This document shows, one piece after another, positions 28 through 7,261 of a stretch of 14,018 nt of DNA. Each line of letters opens with the position of its first letter. The first letter of the stretch is position 1. The stretch is from Pseudomonadota bacterium (GTDB lineage: Bacteria; Pseudomonadota; Alphaproteobacteria; Rhodobacterales; Rhodobacteraceae): the NCBI GenBank assembly GCA_038521775.1, contig JBCBKN010000082.1, forward strand, positions 1-14,018, written 5' to 3'. Under the pieces are notes generated by a model. That model saw only the letters and a list, made by a program, of their open reading frames with translations. It did no database searches and was not told where the DNA came from. The translations under genes and the position numbers were made by a program.

Positions 28-471
28 TCAGTCCTTGCGGAAGAACTTCTTTTCGCGCGGTTGTCCGTCCCAGCCGGTTTTCTGACGAGGACGGTCCTCG
101 CCGCCGCCGCCACCGCCGGCCGCACCGTCGCGCCCGCCCCGATCATGCGCCCGCCCATCGCTTGAGCGCCCATCATGTGAGCGGCCATCGCGGCCGCGCG
201 CACCGCCATGGGCCCGCAAACCGCCATCGCCCCGCGGCGGCCGGCCGCTGCTGCCCGCGCCGTGATCCTCGCGCACTTCCCATTTTTTCAGAAGACGGGC
301 GTCGAACCGGTCGCGGCCGATCTGCCCTTCATGGCACCAGATCGTCGAGACGATCGTGCCCGTCGCGGTGCTGGGGTCTGCCGCATCGCCGGTGATTTCC
401 ACCGCTTCCACCGCCATGCGCATGGAACCGGCCGTGAGGACCACAAGATCCCCAACCTCATATTTCGTCAT
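28..471 (-). CDS. DUF2158 (YodC-like) small domain protein with a C-terminal Arg/Gly/Asp-rich low-complexity extension (about 148 aa)
   Basis: ORF 28..636(-) trimmed to the internal ATG at 469-471 (MTKYEVGDLVVLTAGSMRMAVEAV...WCHEGQIGRDRFDARLLKKWE is the DUF2158 signature). AAGG sits about 10 nt upstream and a TTGCAT-N17-TATAGA promoter lies just 5'. The tail GRDGRSHDGRSSDGRAHDRGGRDGAAGGGGGG is encoded by imperfect gcccatc-type nucleotide repeats at 100-240. Stop TGA at 28-30. Confidence 0.6.
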   Translation of the reverse strand: MTKYEVGDLVVLTAGSMRMAVEAVEITGDAADPSTATGTIVSTIWCHEGQIGRDRFDARLLKKWEVREDHGAGSSGRPPRGDGGLRAHGGARGRDGRSHDGRSSDGRAHDRGGRDGAAGGGGGGEDRPRQKTGWDGQPREKKFFRKD

Positions 472-537
472 CCGTAACGTACCTTTCTGTCGCGGCCTGT
501 AACCGCTTTCGGTCCCGGGCTCAGCCCCGGGAGGGTC

Positions 538-611: not shown

Positions 612-1048
612 AAGTCGAGCGCGCGAGAAGCAACATTACGGGCGCGCGCCGGTCAAGGCCGCTTGGTCAGGGTCTGCACCATATCGGGTGCGCCCGACCA
701 GCGCGGAAGCACGGGAGAGGCTGAACCGGCCCCGGAGCGTTTGTTCACAGCGCCAGGAGGTTGCGCGGGCCCGGTCGGGTGGCAGCGAGAACCGTCTGGG
801 CAATACGCCTGCCCGTCATGACACGGACGGTGACATCCGAACCGCTGTCGTGAACATTGACAGATGTGCGGCCGTCCAGAGCTTTGAGCTTGTGGATATC
901 TAGGCCTCGGATGCAGTCGCCGAGAAATAAAGCGCTGCGGCCTGCTGAAAACTAATTGCGCATGCCACCCTCCTCTTCTTGAGGGGTTGGAGTAAGCGGT
1001 TCGCGCAGGCCGCACAACTTACGAATGCTGAAATATTTGGGGCTGAAA

Positions 1049-1094: not shown

Positions 1095-2237
1095 TCAGTC
1101 GCGCAGGCGCACCAGGTCGCTGAGCAGCCCGCCGGTCCCGCTATGGACCGTGAGCGTGCCGATCTTGCCGGCCAGGCCTTCGAGCGCCTCAAGCTCCTTG
1201 AGCCGCAGCATCACCGGGTTCTCCTCCATCACCTTGGCGGTGTTGAGGAGCGAGCGGGTCGCGTTGGTCTCCTCGCGCCGGCGGATGACATTGGCCTCGG
1301 CCTCCTTCTGCGCCTCGACCACGCGGGTCAGGATCTCGCGCATCTCGCCGGGCAGGATCACGTCCTTGAGCGCGATCTCGCCCAGCTCGAGCCCGAGCTG
1401 TGCCATCTCGACCCGCACCTTTTCGGCCGCCTCCGCATCGACCGACACCTTGTCGGCCAGAAGCTGGTCGAGCGTGAGCGCGCCCAGCGTCTTGCGGAAC
1501 GCAAATTGCAGCGCCCGGTGCAAGGCTTCCTTGAAGTCATGCACCGCCGTCACAGCCTGCACCGGATCGGTCACCCGGTATTCGGCGGCCAGGTTCACCC
1601 GCAGCGGCACCCGGTCACGGGTCAGGATCTCCTGCCCCGTGACGTCGATCGACCGCCAGCGCAGATCGACAATGCGCAGTTCGACCGTCACCCCGGTCGC
1701 CCAGAAGCGGTGGGTCCCCGGTTCGAGCAGCTGTGCGCTTCCCCCATCGATGGAGAGAAGCCCCGCATGGCCGTCGGGCACCCGATGCTCGGTGAACCAG
1801 TTTTCGGAGGCACCCTTGGACATGCGCTTTGCCAGCGCGGGCGAGATCGCAAGATCGGCCGACACGTCGAAGCGTTCGACCTCCCAGGGCCCAGCATCGC
1901 GCAGGTAAAGCACCTTGGTGTTGGGCTGCATCGCCTGCCAGGGGCGCCCATCGCGCATCACCATCGCCACCTCGCCGGGCCCGGTGCGCACCTCCGTCAC
2001 CAGTATCGCCGCCAGATCGGGACGGTCGCGCATCAACGCATCGGCATTGTCCGACGAAAAGAAGCTGCGATTGAGATTGTGCCATTCCAGGACGACATTG
2101 CTGCGCGGTATCGCATGGGACCCTGGGCCCAAAACGTCGTGAAACTCACCGTAATGCAGCACCAGAACGCGCTGGTTGGGGGTGACCGTGATGCGCTGAA
2201 CATCGCGGATCCAATCGAAAAGATGTGTCAGACCCAT
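1095..2237 (-). CDS. SPFH/band 7 (stomatin/prohibitin/HflK-C superfamily) domain protein, 380 aa, with a roughly 130 aa insertion near the N-terminus and no predicted TM segment
   Basis: The C-terminal two thirds matches the band-7 core: ILTRDRVPLRVNLAAEYRVTDPVQAV...ALQFAFRKTLGALTLDQLL...IALKDVILPGEMREILTRVVEAQKEAEANVIRRREE. The N-terminal RITVTPNQRVLVLHYGEFHDVLGPGSHAIP resembles the first SPFH strand. A GGAGA RBS lies 10-13 nt upstream of the ATG at 2237. Confidence 0.85.
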   Translation of the reverse strand: MGLTHLFDWIRDVQRITVTPNQRVLVLHYGEFHDVLGPGSHAIPRSNVVLEWHNLNRSFFSSDNADALMRDRPDLAAILVTEVRTGPGEVAMVMRDGRPWQAMQPNTKVLYLRDAGPWEVERFDVSADLAISPALAKRMSKGASENWFTEHRVPDGHAGLLSIDGGSAQLLEPGTHRFWATGVTVELRIVDLRWRSIDVTGQEILTRDRVPLRVNLAAEYRVTDPVQAVTAVHDFKEALHRALQFAFRKTLGALTLDQLLADKVSVDAEAAEKVRVEMAQLGLELGEIALKDVILPGEMREILTRVVEAQKEAEANVIRRREETNATRSLLNTAKVMEENPVMLRLKELEALEGLAGKIGTLTVHSGTGGLLSDLVRLRD

Positions 2238-2626
2238 GGCAAAATCTCCTATCTCCGTCGGTCTACCTATCGTCGTCGCAAGACGCTCTCCTCTGGGTGG
2301 GCGCTGTGCCCGGTGCGGCCCCTGCGGGCCGGTGATTTCCCCTGCCGGGGAAGGTGGAAAAGGCCCCGAAGCCGGCGGACCGGACCAAGGGCGGATCGGC
2401 GGCGAGCGGGCAGGGCGTCTGCCAGGCGCGGCGCGGGCGGGTCCGAAGACGCGTCCTTGCCTGGCCGGGCAGGGCCGGTGCCGTCATCCGCGACCGGCCA
2501 CTGGCCTGGGCGCGTGCCTGTGCGCCGCCCCCGCCCGAAGGCCGGTTTGGCGCGCCGGCCCGTGCAGGCCGGCTTCGGAAACCCCATTCTGTCGCCACAT
2601 CCAATCGTGTGGTGCCCTCTGAGGGG

Positions 2627-2700
2627 CGGAGGCAAGGAGAGGAGTCGAACCTCTAACCAGCTGGCTTGCGCCAAATGCTCTACCATTGAGCTACGTTGCC
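2627..2700 (-). tRNA. tRNA-like gene with canonical acceptor, D and T arms but a non-canonical anticodon region; possible pseudo-tRNA or tRNA-like element, anticodon not assignable
   Basis: Minus-strand read: GGCAACG-TA-GCTC-AATGGTA-GAGC-AT-TTGGC-GCAA-GCCAG-CTGGTT-AGAGG-TTCGACT-CCTCT-CCTTGCC-T-CCG. The D arm (GCTC/GAGC), T arm (AGAGG/CCTCT with a TTCGACT loop) and 7 bp acceptor stem (one C-C mismatch) are intact. No register gives a 5 bp stem with a 7 nt loop carrying U33. Instead a 5 bp stem capped by the GNRA tetraloop GCAA forms. Confidence 0.5.
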
Positions 2701-2703
2701 GAA

Positions 2704-2720
2704 CCGTTTTGGAAAAACGG
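2704..2720 (-). promoter_or_regulatory. Perfect hairpin ccgtttt-gga-aaaacgg, 3 nt 5' of the tRNA-like gene and about 190 nt 3' of the sulfatase stop; possible operon terminator or tRNA leader structure
   Basis: 7 bp stem with a 3 nt loop seen directly in the sequence. It contains an internal U-tract but is not followed by a U-run (UUC then the tRNA 5' end). Confidence 0.25.
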
Positions 2721-2907
2721 AGCATCCGCTTGCGCAAGACCCCAGGCATACGGTCCCGGCAGGGCCGGGGCGCACCGGCGGAGTGTGGACCTCCGGCCAT
2801 ATGGGTGACCTGCGAAAGTGCGGAGCGGCGGGGTAACCGCATCGCCCCATTTTCGCCAAACTGTTTCTGCGCCGCGGCTGTGCCGGGCTGGACCTGTTGC
2901 AGATATG

Positions 2908-4449
2908 CTACGCCATGCCGGAGGGGTGCGGAGCCCTGTCGACTGCGGCCATCTCGGCACGCGCCAGCGCCTCCATCAGCTCGGCCCGCATCGCCATGTG
3001 GTCCGGATCGTCCCAAAGATTGCGGAACTCGCCGGGATCGGTTTGCAGATCGTAAAGCTCGCCCCAGCTCAGCCCGTGAAAAAGCGTCAGGCGCCAGCGC
3101 GCCGTGCGCAGGCTGTGCACCCGTGGCGCGCGGCCCAGCGCGGGCATGTCGCGCTGGTTGTCAAACTGGATGAAGGCCGCGTCACGGCCGGTTGCAAGCA
3201 GATCCTGCCCCTGCACGCCGAGGGCTGCTTCGATTCGCGCGCGCTCGAGAATCGTCGGGCCGATATCGTGGGTCTGGCCGATGGCACCGGTCCGGCCCGT
3301 GGTCGGCCGTTCCGGATCCGCCCAGATGAAGGGCACCCGGGTGAGCTGCTCATACTGCTCGGCGCCTTTCAGCAGCAGACGGTGATCGCCCAGATGATCG
3401 CCGTGATCGGAGGTGAAGACCGTCACCGCCTCGGCCGCCTTGGGGGCCGTGCGCACCTGCCCGACCGCATCGTCGATCATGCCGATCATCCCGCAGGTCA
3501 GTGCCCGCGCCTCCTGCGCCTCGCGCGCGCTCACCGCAATCGTGCCCATGCCGCCAAGTGCGGCCTCGCCCGCGGCACGCTGGGCGATCATGCCGGCCAC
3601 ATGCGGCGGCGGCGTCCAGTCATTGACCGAAAACGCCTCGGGCACCGCCATCTCCTCGGGCCGGTAAAGGTCCCAATAGCGCCCGGGCGGGTTGAAGGGA
3701 TGGTGCGGGTCGGGGAGGGAGACCATCAGAAAGAAGGGCTGATCGCCGGTCTGGCCGCGCAGCCAGGCCTCGGCCCGGTCGGCGATATAGCGGGTGACGT
3801 AGAGCTCCTCGGGCAGGGCGGTGCGCACCGCCTGCGGGCAGATATAGTCATGCGGGATCTCGTTTTCGGCCCCCACAAGCTGGTCGGCCAGAGGCTCGCG
3901 CGCCAAAAGCCAGCTGCGGTAATCCCCGCCGCAGAAATCGCCATGGCCGGTGACCAGCTCGACATGGTCAAAGCCATAGAACGGGGTGCCGGGCGCGGCC
4001 TGACCGGGCGCCTCCTGCCGGTAGCCGGCATCATGCCCATGGCGCATCGCCTCGGCCAGATCGCCCGCGGCGCGATGATAGCCAGGGCGCGTCTGCGGCG
4101 GTTGCAGGATGGCCGGCCGGCCGGTGAAGTTCTGCAGATGGCTTTTGCCGATCAGCGCCGTGCGATAGCCCGCATCGCGCAGCAGCTCCACAAAGGTGAC
4201 ATGCCGTGTGTCGAGCGGAATGCCATTGGAGCGCACCCCGTGGCTTGAGGGCAGGCGCGCGGTCATCAGGCTGGCCCGGTTGGGCATGCAGACCGGGCTT
4301 GCCACATAGAACCGGTCCCAGACGGTGCCGGCCGCGGCGATGGTGTCGATATTGGGGGTGCGCAGCACCGGATGCCCCATACAGCCCAGATAATCGGCGC
4401 GATGCTGGTCAGTGATGAAGAGAATGAAACTCGGCCGGCGATCGGTCAC
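2908..4449 (-). CDS. Sulfatase family protein (Cys-type, C-x-P-x-R motif CMPNR), about 513 aa, with no signal peptide
   Basis: ORF 2908..4635(-) trimmed to GTG at 4447-4449, which has a GAGGA RBS 7 nt upstream and overlaps the upstream gene's TGA stop (ctGTGAcc). The N-terminus PSFILFITDQHRADYLGCMGHPVLRTPNIDTIAAAG...ASPVCMPNRASLMTAR...LIGKSHL is the classic sulfatase N-terminal domain with a formylglycine-target motif. Confidence 0.85.
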   Translation of the reverse strand: MTDRRPSFILFITDQHRADYLGCMGHPVLRTPNIDTIAAAGTVWDRFYVASPVCMPNRASLMTARLPSSHGVRSNGIPLDTRHVTFVELLRDAGYRTALIGKSHLQNFTGRPAILQPPQTRPGYHRAAGDLAEAMRHGHDAGYRQEAPGQAAPGTPFYGFDHVELVTGHGDFCGGDYRSWLLAREPLADQLVGAENEIPHDYICPQAVRTALPEELYVTRYIADRAEAWLRGQTGDQPFFLMVSLPDPHHPFNPPGRYWDLYRPEEMAVPEAFSVNDWTPPPHVAGMIAQRAAGEAALGGMGTIAVSAREAQEARALTCGMIGMIDDAVGQVRTAPKAAEAVTVFTSDHGDHLGDHRLLLKGAEQYEQLTRVPFIWADPERPTTGRTGAIGQTHDIGPTILERARIEAALGVQGQDLLATGRDAAFIQFDNQRDMPALGRAPRVHSLRTARWRLTLFHGLSWGELYDLQTDPGEFRNLWDDPDHMAMRAELMEALARAEMAAVDRAPHPSGMA

Positions 4450-4979
4450 AGCAGATCCTCGATGAACAGACCCAGATATTGCGCGCGTCCCGACACGCCG
4501 GCCTTTCGAAAAACGGCATTCGACTGTGCCTTGATGGTGCCTTCGCTGGTTTTGCGCAACTCTGCGATTTCCGAATTGGCAAAGCCCTTGAGCATGAAGA
4601 GCGCCACATCGCGCTCGGACGGTGTCAGCCGCCATTGCGCGAACCGGTCCTGCACCACGCCGTGAAATTCCGAGGAGGCCGCGCGCAGACGGTCGGCCGC
4701 GCGCTTGCGCTGGCGCAGCAGCGTTGCGGTCAGGATGGCGCCCATCGCCATGCCCAGCAAGAGCCCGGTGGTGGCCATGATCTCCAGCGCCTCATGCCAG
4801 CTCCAGCTCACCGGCGCGTCGCGCCAGCCGAAAATCGAGGCGGCGAGGTCATAGACAAAGAACACGCCGCAGAGCGTCTGAAGCGTCGCAACCAGGATCA
4901 CCGCGACCGGGCCGCCCCAGCCGCCCTGCAGGTCGCGCGGTCCGGTGACGGGGGGAGGCTGATGCTGGGGCTCAGTCAT
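4446..4979 (-). CDS. LuxR/GerE-family HTH transcriptional regulator anchored by two N-terminal TM helices (about 177 aa); alternative start 3 codons upstream at 4988
   Basis: C-terminus LTPSERDVALFMLKGFANSEIAELRKTSEGTIKAQSNAVFRKAGVSGRAQYL is a GerE-type HTH. N-terminus has two hydrophobic helices (PVAVILVATLQTLCGVFFVYDL and IMATTGLLLGMAMGAILTATLL) flanking a short Trp-rich loop. The ORF-track N-terminal extension (MSNRALAHPKRTT...TRIQTRIQ...) is an out-of-frame read of the upstream gene's repeat tract and is rejected. The start ATG overlaps the upstream gene's end (ATGACTGA). Confidence 0.75.
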   Translation of the reverse strand: MTEPQHQPPPVTGPRDLQGGWGGPVAVILVATLQTLCGVFFVYDLAASIFGWRDAPVSWSWHEALEIMATTGLLLGMAMGAILTATLLRQRKRAADRLRAASSEFHGVVQDRFAQWRLTPSERDVALFMLKGFANSEIAELRKTSEGTIKAQSNAVFRKAGVSGRAQYLGLFIEDLL

Positions 4980-5526
4980 CGCCGCCATCTGAATCTGAGC
5001 CCGAATCCGAATCCGAGCCCGAGTCGCTGTCGGAATCCGAGTCGCTGTCAGTGCCCGAATCGCTGTCAGTGTCGGACCCGCTGTCTGTATCCGTGTCTGT
5101 ATCCGTGTCTGAGTCAGTGTCCGGGCCGTCCGCATCGTCCCGATCTGCGTCGTCCCTGTCGTCTGTGTCGTCCCGGTCTGTGTCGTCCCCATCATCCCTG
5201 TCGGCCGGGTCTCTGGAGCGATCCTCAAAATCCTCGGGATCGCGGCCGGGCTGGAACGGGCTGAAATCGCGGTTGTTCTCTTGGGATGTGCCAGCGCTCG
5301 GTTGGACAAGATCGCGCAGCACTTCTCCGGTGCGGGGGTTGATGATCAATTCACGCCGGTATCCATCGCGGGTCGCCTCGATCTGCACCCGGCCGAGCCA
5401 GGTGCGCTCGACCTCCACAATCTCATAGCCCTGCTCTTCAAGGAATGTGATCGCCGCCGCGGTGGCATCGGCCCGCGACGGTTCGGCCGCAAAAAGCAGC
5501 AGCATGATCAGCAGGGCACGGTGCAT
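4972..5526 (-). CDS. Secreted PepSY-like domain protein with a roughly 85 aa Asp/Ser/Thr-rich acidic repeat tail ending ...SDSDGGDD (184 aa)
   Basis: Sec-type signal peptide MHRALLIMLLLFAAEPSRA. The PepSY-like core ITFLEEQGYEIVEVERTWLGRVQIEATRDGYRRELIINPRTGEVLRDLV follows. The tail runs DRDDGDDTDRDDTDDRDD...DTDSDTDTDTDTDSGSDTDSDSGTDSDSDSDSDSGSDSDSGSDSDGGDD. A GGGGAG RBS lies 6 nt upstream of the ATG at 5524-5526. Confidence 0.75.
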   Translation of the reverse strand: MHRALLIMLLLFAAEPSRADATAAAITFLEEQGYEIVEVERTWLGRVQIEATRDGYRRELIINPRTGEVLRDLVQPSAGTSQENNRDFSPFQPGRDPEDFEDRSRDPADRDDGDDTDRDDTDDRDDADRDDADGPDTDSDTDTDTDTDSGSDTDSDSGTDSDSDSDSDSGSDSDSGSDSDGGDD

Positions 5527-5549
5527 TCAGGCTCCCCGGCTAAAGCTGT

Positions 5550-5579
5550 GGGTCCCACCCGGCGGCGCAGATGGGACCC
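5550..5579 (-). promoter_or_regulatory. Intercistronic hairpin (8 bp stem gggtccca/tgggaccc, 14 nt loop) between the DRDD-repeat gene and the PepSY-like gene; possible partial terminator or attenuator
   Basis: Seen directly in the 68 bp spacer between the stop at 5595 and the start at 5526. It is followed on the minus strand by ACAGCUUUAGCC (weak U content) and precedes the GGGGAG RBS. Confidence 0.3.
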
Positions 5580-5594
5580 GATCCCGCGATGGGC

Positions 5595-5894
5595 TTAATC
5601 ATCGCCGCCGTCACTGTCACTGTCACTGTCGGAGTCGCGATCGTCCCGGTCATCCCTGTCGTCGCGATCATCCTTGTCGTCCCTGTCGTCGCGATCATCG
5701 CGGTCGTCCCGATCATCGCGGTCATCCCGATCGTCGCGGTCCAGCAGCCCGACGGTGTTTTTGGCAGCGGTGTCGAGCGTGTGACCGATCCGGCTGAAAA
5801 GGCCCGCAATGCCGGTCTCATCCGACGCGGCCGGGGTTGCGAGCGGGGCGAGCAGCACGGCCAGGGCCAGGGCTGGGAGTTTGAGCTGGGTCAT
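5595..5894 (-). CDS. Small secreted protein (99 aa) with about 11 tandem DRDD tetrapeptide repeats and a C-terminal DSDSDSDSDGGDD
   Basis: Signal peptide MTQLKLPALALAVLLAPLATPAAS, a 30 aa unique segment, then (DRDD)n with one DKDD variant. The AGGACAAGGACG RBS region lies upstream of the ATG at 5892-5894. The underlying DNA is a 12-nt-unit tandem repeat plus (gtcact)3. Confidence 0.7.
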   Translation of the reverse strand: MTQLKLPALALAVLLAPLATPAASDETGIAGLFSRIGHTLDTAAKNTVGLLDRDDRDDRDDRDDRDDRDDRDDKDDRDDRDDRDDRDSDSDSDSDGGDD

Positions 5895-5958
5895 CTGTGG
5901 CGTCCTTGTCCTGTTCGACCGACGGCGGGATGCCGTGGCCGGTCCGACAAAACGCGGT

Positions 5959-6040: not shown

Positions 6041-7261
6041 CTAAAGATCCTCGTTCAGGGCCTCGGCCACGGTGAAGATGTCCTTGTCGCCGCGCCCGCA
6101 CATATTCATGACCAGCAGATGGTCGGCGGGCAGATCGGGCGCGATCTTGGCGACATGGGCCAGCGCGTGCGAGGGTTCGAGCGCCGGGATGATCCCCTCG
6201 GTCCGGCAGCTCAGCTGGAAGGCCGCCAGCGCCTCCAGATCGGTGACCGAGACATATTCGACCCGGCCGGTGTCGTGCAGCCAGGCATGCTCGGGCCCGA
6301 TGCCGGGATAGTCGAGCCCGGCCGAGATCGAATGCCCCTCCAGGATCTGGCCGTCCCCGTCCTGCAAAAGATAGGTGCGGTTGCCATGCAGAACGCCGGG
6401 GCGGCCGCCGGTCAGGCTGGCGCAATGCTCCATCCGGTCATCGACGCCATGCCCCCCCGCCTCGACCCCGATGATGCGCACCGCGCTGTCGTCGAGGAAG
6501 GGGTGAAACAGCCCCATCGCGTTCGACCCGCCGCCGATACAGGCGACCAGGCTGTCGGGCAGGCGGCCTTCGCGCTCGGCCATCTGGGCCTTGGTCTCGC
6601 GCCCGATCACCGATTGAAAATCGCGCACCATCGCCGGGTAGGGATGCGGGCCGGCCACCGTGCCGATGCAGTAGAACGTGTCGCGCACATTGGTCACCCA
6701 GTCGCGCAGCGCCTCGTTCATCGCATCCTTGAGCGTGCCGCGCCCGGCGGTCACCGGCACGACCGTCGCACCCAACAGCTTCATGCGAAAGACATTGGGC
6801 TTTTGCCGCTCAACATCGGTCGCGCCCATAAAGACCACGCAGTCCAGCCCGAAGCGCGCGCAGACCGTGGCCGTGGCAACCCCATGCTGGCCCGCGCCGG
6901 TTTCGGCAATGATCCGGGTCTTGCCCATGCGGCGCGCAAGCAGGATCTGGCCCAGCACATTGTTGATCTTATGCGCGCCGGTATGGTTGAGCTCATCGCG
7001 CTTGAGATAGATTTTCGCACCGCCGAATGCCTCGGTCAGCCGCTCGGCAAAGTAAAGCGGCGAGGGCCGGCCGACATAATGCGTCCAGAGATCCTGCATC
7101 TCGGCGGCAAAGGCCGAGTCGGTCCTGGCCTTTTCATACTCGGCCTCAAGGTCGAGGATCAGCGGCATCAGGGTTTCGGAGACAAAGCGCCCGCCGAACA
7201 TGCCGAAGCGGCCCTTTTCATCCGGCCCCGTCCGGTAGGAATTGATCCTGTCACTGGCCAT
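6041..7261 (-). CDS. trpB: Tryptophan synthase beta chain (406 aa)
   Basis: [33 protein letters not shown]...[11 protein letters not shown]...[16 protein letters not shown]...[11 protein letters not shown] is unmistakable TrpB with its PLP-binding motifs. ORF 6041..7588 trimmed to the ATG at 7259-7261, which has a GGGAGG RBS 6 nt upstream. Confidence 0.95.

Follow-up and report, generated by a model that had tools for sequence, protein, structure and literature searches.

The window analyzed here is the entire 14,018-bp contig JBCBKN010000082.1 (GC ~66%) of a metagenome-assembled genome (MAG) from the Rhodobacteraceae. On its minus strand, it encodes a tRNA-shaped RNA element (2628-2700) upstream of a gene for an SPFH/Band-7 protein. 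Across homologous loci, the element keeps the shape of a tRNA but no conserved anticodon and is linked to the Band-7 gene. It is also a module of a much larger structured RNA, which was seen in this follow-up and goes beyond the original prediction made for this DNA. We consider it likely, with a probability of about 0.72, that the element is a non-decoding tRNA mimic and one module of an RNA of ~0.6 kb, which would be the cognate RNA of a Band-7 scaffold resembling the vault shell protein in a response to RNA damage. The element is a member of the already predicted, little-studied class of band 7-associated tRNAs (b7a-tRNAs), as that class is outlined in a text citing it (bioRxiv 10.1101/312249). 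The multi-domain RNA, the tandem modules and the occurrence in Rhodobacterales without an adjacent RtcB gene are possibly new.

A tRNA fold with a variable anticodon loop

The tRNA-like D arm and T arm that had been described in the window are confirmed on the minus strand by both ARAGORN and Rfam. ARAGORN, which had been proposed as a check, calls no canonical tRNA; it reports a 'tRNA-???' at 2628-2700(-) with a 2-nt anticodon (ca), which corresponds to a 6-nt loop. The Rfam tRNA model (RF00005) scores 48.4 bits at 2630-2700(-) (E=6e-08; gathering score 29), and the family model R1, which is built from Rhodobacterales copies only, scores 66.7 bits. From the 5´ end, the segments of the element are GGCAACG UA GCUC AAUGGUA GAGC A UUUGG CGCAAG CCAGC UGGUU AGAGG UUCGACU CCUCU CCUUGCC U CCG. 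The acceptor stem of 7 bp contains a C6·C67 mismatch, and the D and T arms are canonical. The discriminator is U, and CCA is not encoded; CCG comes next. The D arm and the T arm are separated by 22 nt, and no register of this spacer yields a 5-bp stem with a 7-nt loop and U33, exactly as had been stated. The features of a canonical decoding tRNA (a 7-nt loop, U33 and an anticodon kept among orthologues) are not found, since the window loop has 6 nt without U33.

In the minimum free energy fold of the region, the 6-nt loop CGCAAG closes by a C:G pair, which leaves a GCAA tetraloop of the GNRA type. The resulting hairpin, UUGGC-GCAA-GCCAG (2661-2674, minus strand), aligns with the anticodon stem of the family and corresponds to this stem lengthened by one C:G pair. 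The hairpin had been described as perfect; its fold and its tetraloop stand, and its stem contains one U·G wobble and is not strictly perfect. The fold energy of the whole molecule is unremarkable (z=-0.5), so the reality of the feature rests on the covariance-model scores and on conservation rather than on thermodynamics. No tmRNA was reported by ARAGORN or Rfam.

Exact look-ups of the SPFH and sulfatase proteins of the window gave no match. Conservation was examined in the loci of Band-7 homologues with 57-82% protein identity, which were reached through protein homology and include Rhodobacterales genera such as Ruegeria, Roseovarius, Litoreibacter, Yoonia and Paracoccus (individual loci are given L numbers below). 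In 14 copies of the constant module of the family, 89.7% of the pair cells in the cloverleaf are standard and 13 pairs show double changes, with the T stem 100% paired and the anticodon stem 94% paired. When 25 modules are aligned to the covariance model, 92.4% of the cells are paired and 17 of the 21 pairs covary. The anticodon stem of the family covaries as well, with 94-97% pairing. None of 500 shuffles reaches the observed values in either set, and pairing falls to ~40-50% in slid registers. The invariant nucleotides comprise U8, A14, G18G19, A21, G53-T54-T55-C56-G57-A58-C61 and the whole T loop. The tertiary 15:48 pair, as read from the alignment, covaries between G:C and U:A and is A:U in the window copy. 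The acceptor/T stack, the elbow between the D and T loops and the 15:48 pair of the tRNA L-shape are all retained by the element.

In contrast, no anticodon is conserved. The 'anticodons' called by ARAGORN vary by locus (Gln, Pro, Arg, Phe, Lys, Asn, Ser, Ile, Leu, Cys and 2-nt calls), position 33 is C or A in several copies, and U33 is often missing. Loops at the anticodon position have 4, 6 or 7 nt across the family, and their sequence is not conserved. In the closest relatives of the window copy the loop has 6 nt (CCUGAA and CUGCCA), and in most Rhodobacterales copies it has 7 nt and an ordinary appearance. The GNRA tetraloop, which headed the original prediction, is real in the window copy, and copies from Burkholderia and Phycisphaerae have it too, but it does not define the family, in which relatives have 6- or 7-nt loops. 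This pattern is a signature of selection on tRNA shape and of none on decoding. The elements of the L-shape are kept but the anticodon is not, which indicates that the RNA does not decode. A loop that varies freely, with tetraloops and a lost U33 among its forms, is in keeping with a molecule that has to resemble a tRNA body yet be neither decoded nor cut. A tRNA body kept with a free anticodon loop is the signature expected of a decoy or a tether, not of a decoder.

The complete cloverleaf, the good tRNA score and the 2-nt anticodon of ARAGORN would agree with a tRNA that still decodes in an unconventional way, for instance by frameshifting or doublet reading with its 6-nt anticodon loop. Orthologues with unrelated loops nevertheless have acceptor stems in common, as illustrated by L104 and L111, which have identical stems with GTT and GCA, respectively. 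U33 or the purine at position 37 is missing in many copies, the terminal acceptor pairs are often unpaired, and the Burkholderia copies contain true tetraloops, all of which makes a decoder the least probable of the explanations considered. The option of a tRNA-like structural RNA or regulatory mimic, which had been raised among others, was correct as to kind. The family of the element is conserved and consists of non-decoding mimics tied to Band-7.

The Band-7 gene and the larger structured RNA

The SPFH/Band-7 ('slipin') gene of the window (1095-2237, minus strand) encodes a protein of 380 aa (Pfam Band_7, 109 bits) and starts 390 nt downstream of the element on the same strand. In every orthologue that could be inspected, the element lies 260-400 nt upstream of the gene on the same strand. 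In each of the nine informative loci that were fetched via the protein alone, Band-7 is preceded by 650-860 nt of non-coding sequence, in which one tRNA-like element or an abutting pair of them lies 330-400 nt ahead of the start codon, again on the strand of the gene. The genes upstream of the element are unrelated among loci and encode a sulfatase, an acetyltransferase, trpB, a phosphoribosyltransferase or DUF1491. Seven further examples came from a metagenome scan for a motif of the flanking RNA (an eighth stretch, L108, is incomplete), and a DNA-pattern scan that is blind to the protein yielded more than 20 loci with a Band-7 orthologue directly downstream. Linkage of the element to Band-7 is obligate.

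Upstream of the tRNA-like module, the RNAalifold consensus contains a 5´ domain (2740-2805, minus strand) that forms a compact multi-helix junction. Its helices are P1 (CCCA/UGGG), P2 (GGAG-loop-CUCC, extended by CGG/CCG) and P3 (GUGCG/CGUAU with an inner hairpin). Across 14 sequences, 98.3% of the cells are paired and 7 pairs show double changes, which none of 500 shuffles matches. The 5´-domain model R2 finds the unseen loci L115 (90 bits) and L113 (69 bits). Between this domain and the element lies the hairpin CCGUUUU-UCC-AAAACGG (2704-2720, minus strand; ccgtttt-gga-aaaacgg on the forward strand), which is located 3 nt from the 5´ end of the element, as originally described. The hairpin occupies the slot in which most relatives carry module 1, a second, upstream tRNA-like unit with an encoded N-CCA and zero spacer to the constant module (module 2). 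Module 1 was found in L096, L097, L099, L100, L102, L103, L106, L109-L111 and L113, and it is replaced by a plain hairpin in the window, L104, L107 and L112. In the Rhodobacterales loci L107 and L112, a mini-module consisting of a T arm only follows module 2.

Two short hairpins (CCCUCAGAGGG and CCACACGAUUGGAUGUGG; 2595-2625, minus strand) are located directly 3´ of the tRNA-like module, and relatives have hairpins of variable sequence at the same place. They are followed by a 3´ domain of ~220 nt (2362-2585, minus strand), which was defined by alignment and alifold. A long-range helix between 2569-2585 and 2362-2375 (GGGGUUUCCGAAGCCGG / CCGGCUUCGGGGCC) closes this domain, and GAUGACGG (2480-2491) and CGAUCCGC (2390-2406) are conserved within it. 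The closing helix, with 15-18 bp, was recovered in 13 of the 14 homologues with many compensatory changes. Both CGAUCCGC and the long-range closing helix are also present in Burkholderia. Closer to the gene, the alignments contain UUG CGA CGA CGA UAG (2267-2281, minus strand), which may be a mini upstream open reading frame (mini-uORF; M-R-R-R-stop) or an RNA motif. This motif lies ~30 nt before the Band-7 start, next to a Shine-Dalgarno (SD)-like GGAGAG at 2282-2291. Relatives vary in the stop (UAG/UAA), in the start (UUG/GUG) and, in one copy, by a CGU; shorter forms occur in L102 and L103 (GUG CGA UAG; GUG UAG), and the motif is absent from L099, L100, L106 and Burkholderia.

Rfam 15 contains no family for the flanking domains. 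Riboswitches (TPP, ZTP and guanidine-I/III) were rejected for these domains, and known large RNAs (GOLLD, ROOL, RNase P and tmRNA) for the region, as none of them was matched in Rfam even at E≤10. The extra domains have no description in the searchable literature, a body of text that does not include the primary b7a-tRNA description, and the element is not described in structured-RNA surveys that mention Rhodobacterales or in an R. pomeroyi small-RNA study. The covariation-supported map of these further domains is offered for mutation.

The Band-7 protein has no obvious hydrophobic segment at its N-terminus, as judged by eye. Residues 178-365 match stomatin and HflK, and the solved entries are multi-chain assemblies with 16-64 chains each. 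The AlphaFold (AF2) model of the protein (pLDDT 80.8) comprises a confident β-rich N-terminal half, an SPFH domain and a long helix. Foldseek matches this model to stomatin, HflK/C, prohibitin and flotillin, which form large complexes or cages, and to the major vault protein (MVP). The matches to stomatin and HflK are confined to the C-terminal two thirds of the protein, and the alignment to MVP spans 425-480 columns and nearly the whole query (E ~3e-10 to 6e-08). The predicted structure thus suggests a resemblance to the vault shell protein, which is not proof of a cage.

Homologous RNAs in RtcR/RtcB loci and the neighbourhood of the window

A scan of one genome per species with the DNA pattern GGTAGAGC-N7-GNRA-N14-GGTTCGA, which describes tRNA-like sequences 1 nt short with GNRA at the loop position, recovered a large Burkholderia family of the same design (~20 species) and one Enterobacterales MAG. 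The prevalence of the tetraloop in this set is biased by ascertainment, since the scan required GNRA. By tblastn across the fetched loci, ~20 Burkholderia loci and the Enterobacterales MAG (L037) have the order RtcR, RNA, Band-7 and RtcB. In B. paludis, the element is located between a divergent RtcR gene and a Band-7 gene of 379 aa, which is followed by RtcB; this Band-7 protein is 39% identical to that of the window over its full length (380 aa, E=3e-76). tblastn also placed a Band-7 orthologue beside odd tRNA-like sequences in one Burkholderiales, one Phycisphaerae and one Kuenenia contig, and RtcB near such sequences in several tRNA arrays. R1 scores the Burkholderia copies at 57-71 bits. 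By these comparisons of sequence and gene order, the RNA and Band-7 pair of the window is homologous to the RtcB-linked pairs.

The Burkholderia RNA consists, in order, of a 5´ domain, a T-arm-only mini-module (GCCCGGGUUCGAAUCCCGGGGC), the tRNA-like module, a GNRA hairpin and a long-range-closed 3´ region that contains CGAUCCGC. The tRNA-like module carries GCAA, GAAA or GCGA tetraloops on covarying stems. The GNRA hairpin is CUGUCC-GCAA-GGACAG, after which a structured region of ~250 nt precedes Band-7 and RtcB. The 5´ domain has GGUGCG...CGCAUGCC in common with the Rhodobacterales 5´ domain, and the putative homology of this domain across the two classes rests on these motifs and on position. 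In an alignment of the Burkholderia leaders (L019 3840-4357 and ~19 further loci), an invariant sigma-54 promoter (TGGCACGCTCCTCGCT) is located on the RtcR side, ahead of the RNA. Upstream of the Rhodobacterales RNA, sigma-54-like (-24/-12) candidates occur as GGGTAATTTTGTTGCG at ~-131 to -133 from the CTCC.CCGGTGCG motif in L111, L112 and L115, and as AGGCAACGCTGTTGCG at -140 in L099. The best match in the window (CGGCACAGCCGCGGCG, 2870-2885) is poor, and the candidates are inconsistent in position and quality; a sigma-54 promoter in Rhodobacterales is a lead only.

We propose that the RNA, which lies directly upstream of the Band-7 gene, is probably co-transcribed with it. The structured transcript would run from the 5´ junction domain through one or two tRNA-like modules and hairpins to the long-range-closed 3´ domain. 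RNase P may cut 5´ of each tRNA-like module; in tandem copies with zero spacer, one such cut would also create the 3´ CCA end of module 1. The released mimic, or the larger RNA, would then associate with an oligomeric Band-7 scaffold. There it may recruit tRNA-handling enzymes such as RtcB to the scaffold, as a tether or decoy, or it may compete for anticodon nucleases as an RNA that they cannot cleave. The Rhodobacterales lineage would have kept the RNA and Band-7 pair without an adjacent RtcB. In the RtcR/RtcB operons, this pair occupies the slot that Ro60 (Rsr) and tRNA-like Y RNAs fill in the Salmonella rsr-yrlBA-rtcBA operon (bioRxiv 10.1101/312249), which is counted toward a role in RNA repair.

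Several observations weigh against a cognate RNA of a repair scaffold. No RtcB, RtcA, RtcR or Rsr gene (TROVE/Ro included) was found in the 14-kb window, so the link to RNA repair rests on the homology of the RNA and Band-7 pair and not on local context. The acceptor pairs 1:72 and 2:71 of module 2 are often weak and the window copy has the C·C mismatch, which makes the efficiency of cleavage uncertain. R1 also scores some genuine tRNAs of tRNA arrays highly; the class is therefore separated by context and not by sequence alone, and the case for homology leans mostly on the protein and the context. R2, which was built on Rhodobacterales sequences, scores the Burkholderia counterpart of the 5´ domain weakly (15.5 bits, E ~0.8). 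Co-transcription, RNase P cleavage and Band-7 binding are all steps that we infer.

The structured region could instead be a cis-regulatory leader only, namely a 5´ untranslated region that controls the translation or stability of the Band-7 mRNA and produces no trans-acting RNA. Such a leader might act via the mini-uORF close to the ribosome-binding site, or it might sense a ligand, a protein or the capacity for tRNA processing. Its constant location on the same strand 260-400 nt upstream of the Band-7 start would agree with this, as would the conservation of the UUG CGA CGA CGA UAG/UAA motif next to the SD. A simple scan for sigma-70 promoters and terminators between 2100 and 3100 of the window found nothing, and no terminator-like site separates the RNA from Band-7 there. 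The Burkholderia sigma-54 promoter precedes the RNA and not the gene. There is also a precedent for a tRNA-like fold that acts as a translational riboswitch, yjdF (PMC9142559). A leader, however, needs neither the full set of tRNA tertiary nucleotides nor the encoded CCA of module 1 nor tandem modules with zero spacer, and Salmonella fills the same genomic slot with trans-acting Y RNAs. We therefore judge a leader without any trans-acting product to be unlikely, although it is the strongest of the rivals. A cis-regulatory role is compatible with a mimic that serves a Band-7 scaffold; the precursor could do both.

For such a mimic, a broader proposal can be put forward tentatively, and we hold it to be possible rather than probable. 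The b7a-tRNA would be the recognizable tip of an RNA of ~0.5-0.7 kb (5´ junction, one or two mimics or a bare T-arm, and 3´ domain) that extends from Alpha- to Betaproteobacteria. This RNA would form the RNA part of a vault-like ribonucleoprotein of the MVP-like Band-7 protein, which would be independent of RtcB in Rhodobacterales. RtcB/RtcA RNA-repair operons are widespread, and the accessory pairs of a scaffold and a small RNA in them are little understood. Culturable Rhodobacterales carry the RNA and Band-7 alone, which makes the function separable from RtcB.

Matches to the odd-tRNA pattern also occur in long tRNA-gene arrays that encode RtcB (L002, L003, L014, L022 and L025), and L003 also has a YrlA at 7076-7207. 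In L023, an array of seven or more tRNA-like units adjoins a Band-7 orthologue. There seem to be neighbourhoods common to tRNA arrays, Y RNAs, b7a-tRNAs and RtcB. Two E. coli chromosomes, L015 (CP178306.1) and L041 (CP178302.1), matched the pattern with tRNA-Phe-like and tRNA-His-like genes that seem to be one G short in a G-run of the anticodon stem; these are likely homopolymer assembly errors and unrelated to the finding.

All credible genes of the window are located on the minus strand, in the order trmB, aroA, cmk, rpsA, HU/IHF-like, lapA, trpF, trpB, small unknowns, a LuxR-type regulator, a sulfatase, the tRNA-like feature, SPFH/Band-7 and a DUF2158-like gene. The DUF2158-like gene (28-474, minus strand) encodes a DUF2158-like N-terminal domain (MTKYEVGDLVVL...), an Arg/Gly-rich low-complexity tail and a conserved C-terminus (KTGWDGKPREKKFFRKD); the RGG-like character of the tail hints at RNA binding. 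This gene also follows Band-7 in L096, L097, L098 and L100, and does not in L099, L111-L113 and L115. A 120-aa open reading frame (ORF) between the two genes (653-1015, minus strand) has an Arg/Pro-rich translation without family matches and is probably spurious. PADLOC, which covers anti-phage defence, gave no matches for the Band-7 protein or its neighbours. A block of two small unknown ORFs, the LuxR-type regulator and the sulfatase (2908-5900, minus strand) separates trpB from the RNA and Band-7 unit. Compared with L100, L111, L112 and L115, this block is inserted in the window and L096; in other Rhodobacterales, the RNA directly follows trpB. trpA is located a few genes past Band-7 in L096 and L100, and no trpA lies downstream in the L111, L112 and L115 loci. 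In the window's lineage at least, the unit appears to have its place between trpB and trpA.

The position beside this insertion bears on two options that had been raised originally, a decayed tRNA and a relic attachment site, either of which might have been left at the edge of the LuxR-sulfatase block. The window copy is 1 nt short in its anticodon loop, which resembles the CUGCAAA of L111 minus U33, and it has the acceptor C·C mismatch and no CCA, as a decaying pseudogene might. Decay is contradicted by the invariant elbow nucleotides and by compensatory changes in all four stems across hosts as distant as those with 57-82% Band-7 identity. An attachment site is contradicted by the 21-nt 3´ end of the element, which had been suggested as a possible direct repeat and occurs once in the 14-kb contig with up to 3 mismatches allowed. 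No integrase domain was found among the window genes, and neither an integrase nor repeats were seen at the insertion, which lies upstream of the 5´ domain, away from the 3´ end of the tRNA-like module. The element is found in every Band-7 locus whatever the upstream gene, and thus travels with Band-7. We consider decay or a relic site very improbable, only slightly less so than a decoder. The conserved mimic has a consequence for annotation: tRNA finders will list such elements as odd or spurious tRNAs with an 'anticodon' that differs per species.

Comparison with known systems

The vault particle consists of MVP, vault RNA and the TROVE-domain protein TEP1. The Band-7 model has the domain order of MVP (a β-rich N-terminus, an SPFH 'shoulder' and a long helix), and vaults also carry a small structured RNA. 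Conversely, the Band-7 protein has 380 aa compared with ~800-900 aa in MVP, the TM-scores are low (~0.4, query-normalised), and vault RNAs are not tRNA-shaped. The window system is known from its sequence and a model, and the relation is put forward as a resemblance and not as membership.

Co-transcribed tRNA-mRNA operons with RNase P 'punctuation', such as E. coli thrU-tyrU-glyT-thrT-tufB, likewise place tRNA-shaped units directly upstream of an ORF, and their tandem units compare with those that abut here with zero spacer. Operon tRNAs are decoders with conserved anticodons, whereas the b7a units vary at this position and are flanked by extra structured domains. The tRNA-like domain of tmRNA and the 3´ tRNA-like structures of viruses also mimic the acceptor/T arm and the elbow without decoding. 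They need aminoacylation and a defined CCA end, whereas module 2 has no encoded CCA.

YrlA and other Y RNAs are larger noncoding RNAs that include a tRNA mimic with conserved D and T arms, and they are encoded beside a scaffold-type protein in RtcR/RtcB operons. In M. smegmatis, YrlA and YrlB are encoded by genes upstream of Rsr and arise by processing of one precursor, and the tRNA-like module of YrlA is cut by RNase P and CCA-tailed; Yrn1 of D. radiodurans has a 6-nt 'anticodon loop' (PMC4201824). tRNA halves with cyclic-phosphate ends activate RtcR, and a decoy role has been proposed for YrlA (PMC7790460). In the Rfam consensus of YrlA (RF02553), the T arm precedes the D arm, whereas the window element has the normal tRNA order; the acceptor-like stem of YrlA is a closed loop without a free CCA end, whereas the acceptor ends of the element are free. 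The element also lacks the Ro-binding stem, and its partner is Band-7 and not a TROVE protein. Identity with YrlA was rejected: the covariance model reaches 15.6 bits (gathering score 69; E=3), the module order differs, and the window contains no TROVE/Ro gene.

The SPFH protein PaFlo8 of P. aeruginosa is encoded inside an rtc locus (2026; PMC13086221). The closest known system is the b7a-tRNA, which was predicted computationally beside Band-7 and RtcB and is described as interchangeable in context with YrlA/Rsr in the passage of bioRxiv 10.1101/312249 that credits Burroughs & Aravind (Nucleic Acids Res 2016; 44:8525). As in that outline, the window element is a tRNA-like noncoding RNA encoded next to a Band-7/SPFH gene, and the RtcB-adjacent pair of other lineages is reproduced here for Burkholderia and the Enterobacterales MAG. 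The window differs from the outlined class in three respects: RtcB, RtcA and RtcR are missing from its 14 kb, its 6-nt loop closes to a tetraloop in place of a 7-nt loop, and the element is embedded in a multi-domain RNA of ~0.6 kb and is tandem in most relatives. The tRNA-like character and the adjacency to Band-7 are thus both present, and the RtcB neighbourhood, which is not found in the window, is treated as typical and not obligatory because the citing text places it 'in certain bacteria'. The 2016 work reportedly names, in its abstract, modules of SPFH/Band-7 and 'a novel tRNA-like molecule' that may serve RNA-repair systems as scaffolding cofactors. Like the Y RNA of Ro60, the b7a-tRNA is presumed to assist a scaffold protein of RNA repair as its RNA cofactor.

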